Sequence record: PV683228.1
Reading direction: 5' to 3' (one strand)
Source of the DNA: Escherichia phage EcF-vB
DNA: 64,000 bases
Position 1 is the stretch's first letter; each line of letters begins with the position of its first letter. Under the pieces are notes generated by a model that ran no database searches, had not been told where the DNA came from, and worked only from the letters and a program-made list of their open reading frames with translations. Shown here in pieces: positions 41,638 to 43,053 of this stretch. The position numbers and the translations under genes were made by a program.

Positions 41638-43053
41638 TTACCAGATATAACGGTCAATCATTACTGCTTTGAGCATTACGCTGATTGGGTCAAACTTCTC
41701 ACCACCAAGCAGAGCTTTTAAAGTGGCTGGAGAGAAACCAGATACCATTGCTACACCGTTATCCTTAACAGACACTTCGCAAGTACCATTACGGTTTGCT
41801 AAGTACCAGAATACCAGTTGTGGCATCTCATATCCAGCTTTTTTGTACTTGCTCTGAATTGCTTCAAAGTTTGTACGACCGTTAGCTCCATCAACCTGAT
41901 TGAACTCCATATCGGAGAAGATGATAAGCTTACTTGGCATATCTTTCTGAGTCAAGTTATTTCTTTTACCTGTCTCAAGAATGCGGTCAAAAGCTGCTTG
42001 TAAGTTAGTTGAGCCATATTCAACGTGTCGCATCACCTGACGATGACGGTTTCGTAAATCACCACTCAGTTCAATGAAATGAGGGTTTGTTGAATAAACC
42101 ATTAACTCGTTCTTAAAGCAACCTGTATTGCGTTCTGCTACATACAAAGCAAGTGATACACCAATATCAAGAGCCGTGATTGAACCAAGATTCACCCAAG
42201 ACATTGAGCTTGAGACATCAGTCATACACAAGATGTTCTCACCTTCTGCCATCCAGTTTGGTAGTGCTTTCCACTGCTCATTAGCAACATCTGCATTACC
42301 GTGCTTGATAGACTTAATCACATCGTATGGGTAAACAGCACCAGCGTTAATCTTAGTCTCACCTTTTGATAAAGACTCGATGTAAGCTTTGTAGCGTTCT
42401 CCATCTTTACGGTTAAACAGTTTTTGGTAACGTGCAGCAGCAAGTGAAGGAATCTTACTGTAGTCAATCTTACCAAACTCATTAGCAGAGATTTTTTGCT
42501 CAACTGTATCAGATAGTGCAGACAACAGTGTACGGTACTCTTTCTCACTCAGGTTGGCAAATTTGCAGAAACGTTTTACAAACTGTTTATGACGTGGTTT
42601 TACTCGTGGTAACCACTTAGCTGCCAAACCTGCTGTTGCAGGGTCTAGTAATGCTGCTTCTAAATGTTTGAAGGCATCTGTCTCAAAACGAGTACCTACG
42701 AAGATTTTAAAGTCATCAAAACGACCAAGTTCTGCAATCTTATCCATAATGCGAAGAACCTGTGTAGGCTCTAAAACTTTATCTTCAATCGCTTGAAGCA
42801 AAACAGTTCTGAAGGCTTTACGCTCACCCATACCTTCTCGTACATCTCGCATATGCAGTAAAATACGAACTGCAACATCAACATCCTCACGCAAAGCTTT
42901 GTAGAACAGGTCTGGTAAGATTTCTACATTGCTACGGCTTGAACCAGCAGCTTTGTAAAAGTCTACAAGAGCAGACATTGATGAAGTATGGTTTACAGCA
43001 CCATTTTCAGTTCGACCTGCATGAAGGTGCGCATGTTTAAATAATTCGCTCAT
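41638..43053 (-). CDS. vWA-domain protein with MIDAS motif (471 aa)
   Basis: DxSxS MIDAS motif (TDVSSSMS) followed by GSTNLQAAF and IIFSDME segments typical of von Willebrand A fold; helical N-terminal ~270 aa; abuts tRNA array. Confidence 0.65.
   Translation of the reverse strand: MSELFKHAHLHAGRTENGAVNHTSSMSALVDFYKAAGSSRSNVEILPDLFYKALREDVDVAVRILLHMRDVREGMGERKAFRTVLLQAIEDKVLEPTQVLRIMDKIAELGRFDDFKIFVGTRFETDAFKHLEAALLDPATAGLAAKWLPRVKPRHKQFVKRFCKFANLSEKEYRTLLSALSDTVEQKISANEFGKIDYSKIPSLAAARYQKLFNRKDGERYKAYIESLSKGETKINAGAVYPYDVIKSIKHGNADVANEQWKALPNWMAEGENILCMTDVSSSMSWVNLGSITALDIGVSLALYVAERNTGCFKNELMVYSTNPHFIELSGDLRNRHRQVMRHVEYGSTNLQAAFDRILETGKRNNLTQKDMPSKLIIFSDMEFNQVDGANGRTNFEAIQSKYKKAGYEMPQLVFWYLANRNGTCEVSVKDNGVAMVSGFSPATLKALLGGEKFDPISVMLKAVMIDRYIW

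Follow-up and report, generated by a model that had tools for sequence, protein, structure and literature searches.

Escherichia phage EcF-vB (sequence record PV683228.1) carries, in the 64,000-nucleotide (nt) stretch analysed here (the window), a gene directly beside an array of 26 tRNA genes. This gene probably encodes a divergent Ro60-type ring protein of the DUF2828/DUF7788 kind, whose likely RNA partners are four elements (Y1-Y4) encoded in the adjacent array and which would act in RNA surveillance or anti-defence. By fold, the locus is a divergent member of the Ro60/Y-RNA ribonucleoprotein kind, with a protein family and an RNA family of its own, and most likely the protein and the RNAs, which it would bind, form a phage ribonucleoprotein. 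With Felix O1-type phages (genus Felixounavirus), the region shares 97-98% identity, and the gene with its flanks is present in 252 GenBank phage records, nearly all of the Felix O1 type. The features of the gene and the array are as follows.

41638-43053, minus strand: Ro60-like protein gene; open reading frame (ORF) of 471 amino acids with an ATG start; Pfam DUF2828 and DUF7788, PHROG 850; orthologue of Bas63 gp130
42259-43053, minus strand: N-terminal helical region, residues ~1-265, predicted TROVE-like HEAT-repeat ring
41641-42246, minus strand: C-terminal von Willebrand factor A (vWA) domain, residues ~270-471, placed by DUF7788, invariant columns, and vWA structural matches
42205-42219, minus strand: codons of the MIDAS (metal ion-dependent adhesion site) motif D279-x-S281-x-S283, completed by T349 and D381
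36343-41472, minus strand (that of the protein gene): array of 26 tRNA genes, called by ARAGORN and Rfam

Fold and family of the ring protein

The first-pass annotation of this DNA had reported a 471-residue ORF with a DxSxS MIDAS motif and a helical N-terminal region, situated beside the tRNA array, and all of these hold. The ORF occupies 41638-43053 on the minus strand, and tRNA-Pro (41396-41472, minus strand), the first gene of the array, lies 165 nt downstream of its stop codon. The DxSxS motif reads D279-V-S281-S-S283, and in an alignment of 60 homologues (40-89% identity) D279, S281, and S283, as well as T349 and D381, are invariant, so that the MIDAS site is complete. The ring portion contains many invariant Arg and Lys residues (R40, R69, R72, R78, R111, and K146). 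Pfam assigns DUF7788 to residues 275-455 (expectation value, E, 2.3e-43; 148.5 bits against a curated cut-off of 27.1) and also matches DUF2828 (E, 2e-29; 103.4 bits against a curated cut-off of 29), and PHROG 850 ('RNA-binding protein') is matched over the full PHROG length (E, 6e-184). The homologue family is large: when clustered at 50% identity, it numbers 8,951 clusters for E <= 1e-3 and 4,107 for 1e-30.

A structure model was generated with AlphaFold2 fed with the 60-sequence homologue alignment, and was confident (predicted local distance difference test, 89.6; predicted template-modelling score, 0.89). In this model, residues 1-265 are all-helical and the C-terminal half is alpha/beta. 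A Foldseek search against the PDB returned Ro60, Rsr, or phage Ro60 as the top 9 entries, each matched at full length, over both the ring and the vWA domain (E, 1.7e-8 to 2.4e-7; template-modelling score, 0.5-0.67), and vWA-only proteins ranked after the Ro60 chains with E around 1e-3. On the basis of these full-length matches, the N-terminal region has the Ro60 ring fold, and the TROVE/HEAT fold that had been suspected from the sequence is borne out by the predicted structure: the modelled protein combines a HEAT-repeat ring and a vWA domain in a single chain, with the full-length Ro60 fold. The identity to solved Ro60 structures is 11-15%.

An RNA family in the tRNA array and beside distant homologues

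Four elements on the gene strand of the window, three short and one long, share a sequence motif and a fold; R1 and R2 denote the covariance models described below.

41228-41306, minus strand: Y1, short Y-RNA-like element (motif search; RNAfold; R1 E, 6e-5; R2 E, 3e-5)
41074-41139, minus strand: Y2, short Y-RNA-like element (motif search; RNAfold z-score, -3.3; R1 E, 1e-5; R2 E, 2.7e-4)
40644-40723, minus strand: Y3, short Y-RNA-like element (motif search; RNAfold; R2 E, 3.9e-4)
40500-40636, minus strand: Y4, long YrlA-like element (sequence reading; RNAfold z-score, -2.7; permuted-tRNA scanner; R2 E, 3e-23)
60209-60432, plus strand: second copies of Y3 (60209-60288) and Y4 (60296-60432) in an inverted duplicate arm

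The sequence AGAAGACCnnnnnCAGCAA stands on the gene strand at four places in the primary arm (41284-41302, 41117-41135, 40701-40719, and 40614-40632); a search for it at up to 2 mismatches gave 7 matches against 0.57 expected, the remaining ones being the 2 duplicate-arm copies and one 2-mismatch site at 49947. Y1 forms the spacer between tRNA-Glu and tRNA-Met, and Y2 that between tRNA-Met and tRNA-Asn, both embedded like extra units of the array with linkers of 3-8 nt to the flanking tRNAs, and Y3 is placed 7 nt upstream of Y4. In the RNAfold predictions, all four adopt a common fold composed of an outer stem of 3-4 base pairs (bp), an internal loop with AGA opposite G, and an inner helix AGACCnn/nnGGUCU; in Y1, the outer stem UGAC/GUCA and the internal loop are followed by the inner helix AGACCAA/UUGGUCU and then by UUACAGCAA. 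The outer stems vary yet stay paired among the four copies (UGAC/GUCA, UUGC/GCAA, AGC/GCU, and UUAC/GUAA), and the variable pairs of the inner helix covary. Y4 is arranged in the order closing helix, UUUACAGCAAA, variable-arm hairpin, T-arm (GAAGG-UUCGAUU-CCUUC), closed acceptor hairpin (a 7-bp stem closed by a 4-nt loop, ACUCGGC-AGAG-GUCGAGU), D-arm (GUGU-AAUGGUA-GCAC), and closing helix again. Searches of the window and 8 loci against Rfam 15 at the gathering score matched tRNA families only, and relaxed thresholds over Y1-Y4 gave nothing above chance level. In the 250 phage records that retain it, the Y3-Y4 segment is annotated as nothing or as 'hypothetical protein', never as RNA.

A ribonucleoprotein module had been suggested as a possibility in the first-pass annotation, with three regions of the array (38623-38717, 39125-39380, and 39565-39705) as its structured RNA candidates. 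Hairpins are indeed present there (z-scores from -1.05, at 39251-39379, to -3.7), those at 38623-38717 (z, -3.0) and 39125-39250 (z, -3.7) on the minus strand being stable, but no covariance-model match identifies these regions as Y-like elements, which lie instead at 40500-41306. A degenerate GAAGACCG..AACAAA stretch at 38623-38717 recalls the Y motif, with neither a matching closing helix nor an R2 match. What supports the idea of a module itself is an RNA family that is conserved and linked to the gene, has a tRNA mimic among its members, and would be bound by the protein.

The same family was found in distant loci. We took 80 viral contigs encoding homologues, 75 of them distant (39-47% protein identity), and scanned them for the permuted modules T-arm, closed 7-bp acceptor, and D-arm. 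This gave 21 matches, all on the gene strand, against 0.2 in shuffles; 10 matches in 8 distant loci were judged genuine, each being enclosed by a closing helix with UU(n)CAGCAA preceding the module, and two (L041:3012 and L048:12484) were discarded as adjacent tRNA pairs. A descriptor, the statistics of which are independent of the covariance models, required a helix of 7 bp, C[AC]GCA after a spacer of 2-3 nt, and, no more than 170 nt on, the perfect complement followed by G; it found 76 matches on the gene strand within 800 nt of the gene in 48 of the 75 distant loci. Its controls gave 4 matches on the opposite strand and 2-6 in shuffles, corresponding to a ~20-fold enrichment near the gene, and the density fell from 0.65 per kb near the gene to 0.06 per kb beyond 1.5 kb.

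The covariance model R1, for which near-identical copies of Y4 were combined with a structure written by hand, picked up Y1, Y2, and elements in about 20 distant loci; alignments made with MAFFT from the long forms were rejected as a model basis for being out of register. Iteration led to R2, which was rebuilt from 18 diverse matches and gave 69 matches at E <= 0.1, all on the gene strand and including all four window elements, with 61 of them in 41 of the 75 distant loci; a match at window positions 40151-40281 was discarded as an adjacent tRNA-Ile/tRNA-Met pair. For 47 of the 61, the distance to the gene is no more than 700 nt (18 are upstream and 29 downstream); many of the matches are 12-60 nt from the gene ends, and some copies stand several kb away inside tRNA arrays. 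Two other probes were set aside, namely the exact window motif AGAAGACC...GGTCTG, which is confined to Felix O1-type loci, and a strict descriptor of the AGA-opposite-G internal loop, which failed in a relative of 47% identity (L007); the structure-based scanners and covariance models were therefore adopted. In L007, which has its own 22-tRNA array, the elements again appear as units between tRNAs. When viral contigs were scanned with AAAGAATNNNTNCAGCAAA, the gene was present in 9 of 120 stretches, on the strand of the match and for the most part no more than 300 nt from it, and most others were chance matches. Tandem clusters of Y-like elements, with up to four or five copies, were seen in L191 (2070-2433), L196 (7941-8125), and L071 (7387-8114).

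Covariation was evaluated on 62 distinct sequences (25 long and 37 short) in an alignment fitted to the R2 output, a procedure that inflates pairing: 88.4% of cells pair versus 56.6% in shuffles, the covariation score is 0.422 versus 0.117 in shuffles (0 of 500 reach 0.422) and 0.04-0.07 with slid partners, and compensatory changes occur in 28 of 28 pairs. The pairing is 90.7% in the closing helix, 94.5% in the T stem, 95.5% in the acceptor, and 88.9% in the D stem. Both the closing helix and the D stem are also predicted by RNAalifold from an unfitted MAFFT alignment. In the consensus, the 5' end reads aaaGnau(n3)uUnCAGCAA and the 3' end (n3)aunCuGnua. In 5 of 22 long forms, a discriminator plus CCA (N-CCA) is encoded directly 3' of the acceptor strand, against ~0.3 expected; Y4 of the window has its AGAG acceptor loop without CCA.

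The tRNA-like arms and the position in tRNA arrays could also be explained if the elements were functionless, either as decaying or permuted tRNA genes or as relics of mobile elements. We regard such an origin, which is already disfavoured, as most improbable: the compensatory changes in all 28 pairs span lineages of 40-47% protein identity, the non-tRNA motif UUnCAGCAA is conserved, the short forms are without tRNA parts, 250 of the 252 gene-carrying records keep Y3-Y4, and the elements adjoin the gene even in loci without any tRNA. In the 58 loci scanned, 154 tRNA or tmRNA genes were found near the gene, all on its strand, in 24 loci, and the other 34 had none. The tRNA-less loci bear one or two elements starting ~30 nt past the stop codon, which places the linkage with the gene and not with the tRNAs. 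Clustering of the neighbouring ORFs revealed no protein partner common across lineages (the best cluster covers 19-22 of 76 loci), no RtcB or PNPase, and ClpP and DnaJ in one lineage; in the absence of a cross-lineage protein neighbour, the RNA is the only conserved companion of the gene.

That many copies lie at 12-60 nt from either the gene's start or its stop, and that the window copies lie within a polycistronic tRNA array, would also fit cis-acting parts of the transcript, such as autoregulatory sites in untranslated regions, RNase processing punctuation, or stabilisers, in place of free trans-acting RNAs. This explanation appears quite improbable, given that the elements are multi-copy and tandem and that copies are also found within tRNA arrays at a distance of several kb from the gene. 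Furthermore, the complete tRNA-like module, to which some forms add an encoded N-CCA, suggests that a discrete RNA is excised.

Two other structured sequences of the array were noted on the minus strand. Immediately after Y4, a 147-nt element (40354-40500) with a closing stem of ~23 bp folds at -45 kcal/mol in RNAfold (z, -5.9; no shuffle as stable) and has no Rfam or Y-model match; it may be another small RNA. A tRNA-like sequence at 39483-39567, not called by ARAGORN, shows an acceptor-type stem of 10 bp, GUAUGGGACG/CGUCCCAUGC, with CAAA after it, the 3' strand and tail reading ...CCCAUGCCAAA, which equals G-CCA if the stem is taken as 7 bp. It contains a T-arm-like GGGGUUCAACUCCUC and no clear D-arm or anticodon arm, and may be a degenerate or unusual tRNA.

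Ppl phenotype and comparison with known Ro60/Y-RNA systems

The protein is identical at 465 of 471 residues (99%) to bas63_0130 of Escherichia phage JohannRWettstein (Bas63), which occupies the same place upstream of tRNA-Pro and the tRNA array, the two being the same protein in the same position. According to the 2024 PhageMaP preprint (PMC11482910), deletion of g130 results in tiny Bas63 plaques on a host with the Ppl defence, complementation brings the plaques back, and gp130 alone, plasmid-borne or inserted in T7, rescues T7 on the ppl host. Its authors had already pointed out the likeness of gp130 to Ro60, so that the Ro60 reading is not new for this protein, and had guessed that some annotated tRNAs could be Y RNAs; the elements described here are, in contrast, unannotated and located in the spacers. 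The searched passages of the preprint describe no RNA family or cross-phage conservation, and what is new here, as far as those passages go, is the spacer RNA family and its linkage to the gene.

The protein could, in principle, act by itself, with its vWA/MIDAS face binding and blocking Ppl or another host protein, the RNAs being unrelated. We consider this unlikely. Such an action is favoured by the invariance of the MIDAS residues, MIDAS being a classical type of site for protein ligands, and by the Ppl resistance that gp130 alone gives to T7, which has none of these RNAs (PMC11482910). On the other hand, the full-length Ro60 fold, the many invariant basic residues in the ring, and the same-strand RNA as the sole feature conserved beside the gene across phage lineages weigh against a protein-only factor, and host RNAs could act as partners in the T7 experiment.

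In Bas63, two ORFs called as 'hypothetical protein' in antisense orientation, bas63_0137 and bas63_0138, overlap the counterpart of Y4; in the sequence record (MZ501086; locus L083) they cover Y4 and the following hairpin element at 16749-17023. These are probably spurious ORF calls, and knock-out data on them may in fact report on RNAs.

The system shares several traits with those already known. As in Ro60 and Rsr, a HEAT-repeat ring is closed by a vWA/MIDAS domain in the predicted structure; as in YrlA and YrlB loci, small RNAs with paired 5' and 3' ends are encoded close to the protein gene and on its strand; and as with bacterial and phage Y RNAs, long tRNA-mimicking and short forms coexist, with more than one RNA per locus. 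In Ro60 itself, Y RNA is bound on the outside of the ring and single-stranded RNA ends are bound in the hole at its centre. Bacterial YrlA has the permuted module order variable arm, T-arm, closed acceptor, D-arm (PMC4201824), and the stem of Y4 closes a tRNA-like domain in the identical order. YrlA of Mycobacterium smegmatis is cleaved by RNase P and then given CCA (PMC4201824); like it, the family has a 7-bp closed acceptor stem and some long forms encode discriminator plus CCA, whereas Y4 of the window is without CCA. A phage example exists in Thermus phage phiLo, in which Ro60 occurs with Yrl1/2 (PDB 9KOP/9L5Y; PMC12135203). Unlike the known Ro60/Rsr systems, the locus has no linked RtcB, RtcA, or PNPase gene, and the gene is often joined to phage tRNA arrays or tmRNA. 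Because the survey of Chen et al. (2014) was limited to genomes with an annotated TROVE domain (PMC4201824), the DUF2828 family fell outside it. A full-text literature search on 'DUF2828' gave nothing relevant, although reviews might already class DUF2828 with TROVE.

Several observations weigh against a Ro60-type ring with Y-RNA partners. Unlike Ro60 and Rsr, the protein has no Pfam TROVE signature: only DUF2828 and DUF7788 are found at E <= 0.1, and at the sequence level the DUF2828/DUF7788 family remains outside TROVE. Neither phmmer nor the 60-sequence profile found a Ro60 chain in the PDB (profile-profile comparison with HHpred was not run), so that the Ro60 relation is seen only by fold comparison. 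The RNA motif, aaaG..helix..UUnCAGCAA and ..CuG, is not GGUCCGA, GNCGAAN0-1G, or CGAA, the Ro60-binding motif being GNCGAAN0-1G near the 5' end and GGUCCGA in animals (PMC4201824). About a third to a half of the distant loci are without an element under the present models, and 8 R2-confirmed RNA stretches (L089, L101, L112, L120, L173, L191, L196, and L198) are without the gene in the fetched 2-12 kb pieces of long contigs. The inflated pairing of the model-fitted alignment belongs here as well. Finally, since gp130 alone suffices against Ppl (PMC11482910), phage RNAs are unnecessary for that phenotype, unless host RNAs substitute for them.

For the Ro60-type ring with Y1-Y4 as partners, which we still find the likely reading, the following course can be envisaged. 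The Y elements would be transcribed together with the tRNAs and, because they lie 3-8 nt from the flanking tRNAs, would be freed by tRNA-processing enzymes. The protein would bind them via the conserved helix and motif, and the bound elements may tether the ring or gate it, in the manner of the Y RNAs of Ro60. The complex would then work during infection in RNA surveillance or anti-defence, and the RNAs may thereby contribute to the Ppl phenotype.

Surroundings of the locus and implications

A consensus scan of the window yielded four promoter-like matches around the gene and the array.

41499-41619, minus strand: two promoter matches of sigma-70-like type, TTGACA-17-TAATAT and TTGACA-18-TAAAGT, both lying between gene and tRNA-Pro
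43093-43122: third promoter-like match, ahead of the gene
40077-40105: fourth promoter-like match, within the tRNA array

Promoter-like TTGACA sites are no commoner in the window than in shuffles, and these matches are suggestive only. The next gene upstream (43135-43506, minus strand, thus the same strand) encodes a 123-residue DUF5681 protein (PHROG 4114) with a very basic N-terminus; this neighbour is not conserved beside DUF2828 genes outside Felix O1-type phages. In one group of environmental phages, the DUF2828 gene is found near a phage tmRNA, which lies 5-6 kb downstream in L030, L031, L037, and L042 and upstream in L027, and a related phage set has the gene near ClpP and DnaJ (in L046, ClpP at 11930-12667 and DnaJ at 9919-10962). 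This proximity hints at a translation and RNA quality-control island.

The window itself is a fold-back, in which 36929-50136 and 64000-51177 are inverted copies of 99.4-99.8% identity (95.5% near the centre). The second arm has many single-base indels, and its Ro60-like gene is frameshifted, the surviving ORF being 263 residues at 59100-59891; the fold-back appears to be a chimera from long reads or assembly, not a biological feature. A segment of 1,062 bp (40825-41886) is missing from the second arm, with the junction at 60107/60108 and no obvious microhomology. It comprises the gene's final 82 codons, the two promoter-like sites lying between gene and tRNA-Pro, Y1, Y2, tRNA-Pro, Glu, Met, Asn, and Tyr, and most of tRNA-Asp, and its absence may reflect either a genuine deletion variant or an artefact.

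The function of the Ro60/Y-RNA particle has been an open question since its components were discovered as autoantigens, and bacterial work has been limited to a few species. In the present locus, a divergent Ro60-like protein for which a clean phenotype is already at hand, the countering of the Ppl defence system, is found in easily engineered phages of E. coli and Salmonella (Felix O1 and Bas63), with candidate RNA partners that can be named to the nucleotide. The annotation of about 250 phage records, in which the elements are unannotated or lie under spurious ORF calls, can be corrected, and the 'empty' spacers of phage tRNA arrays are in part explained. More tentatively, and as a possibility that we hold with less than even confidence, DUF2828 Ro60-like rings and CAGCAA-motif Y RNAs may constitute a large unrecognised phage ribonucleoprotein system, in which the RNAs are carried within tRNA arrays, become tRNA mimics through maturation by RNase P and the CCA-adding enzyme, and tether or gate the ring to intercept a host defence or RNA-decay activity, Ppl being the first known target. 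If this is true, these phages would provide a genetically tractable E. coli phage model for the function of the Ro60/Y-RNA complex.

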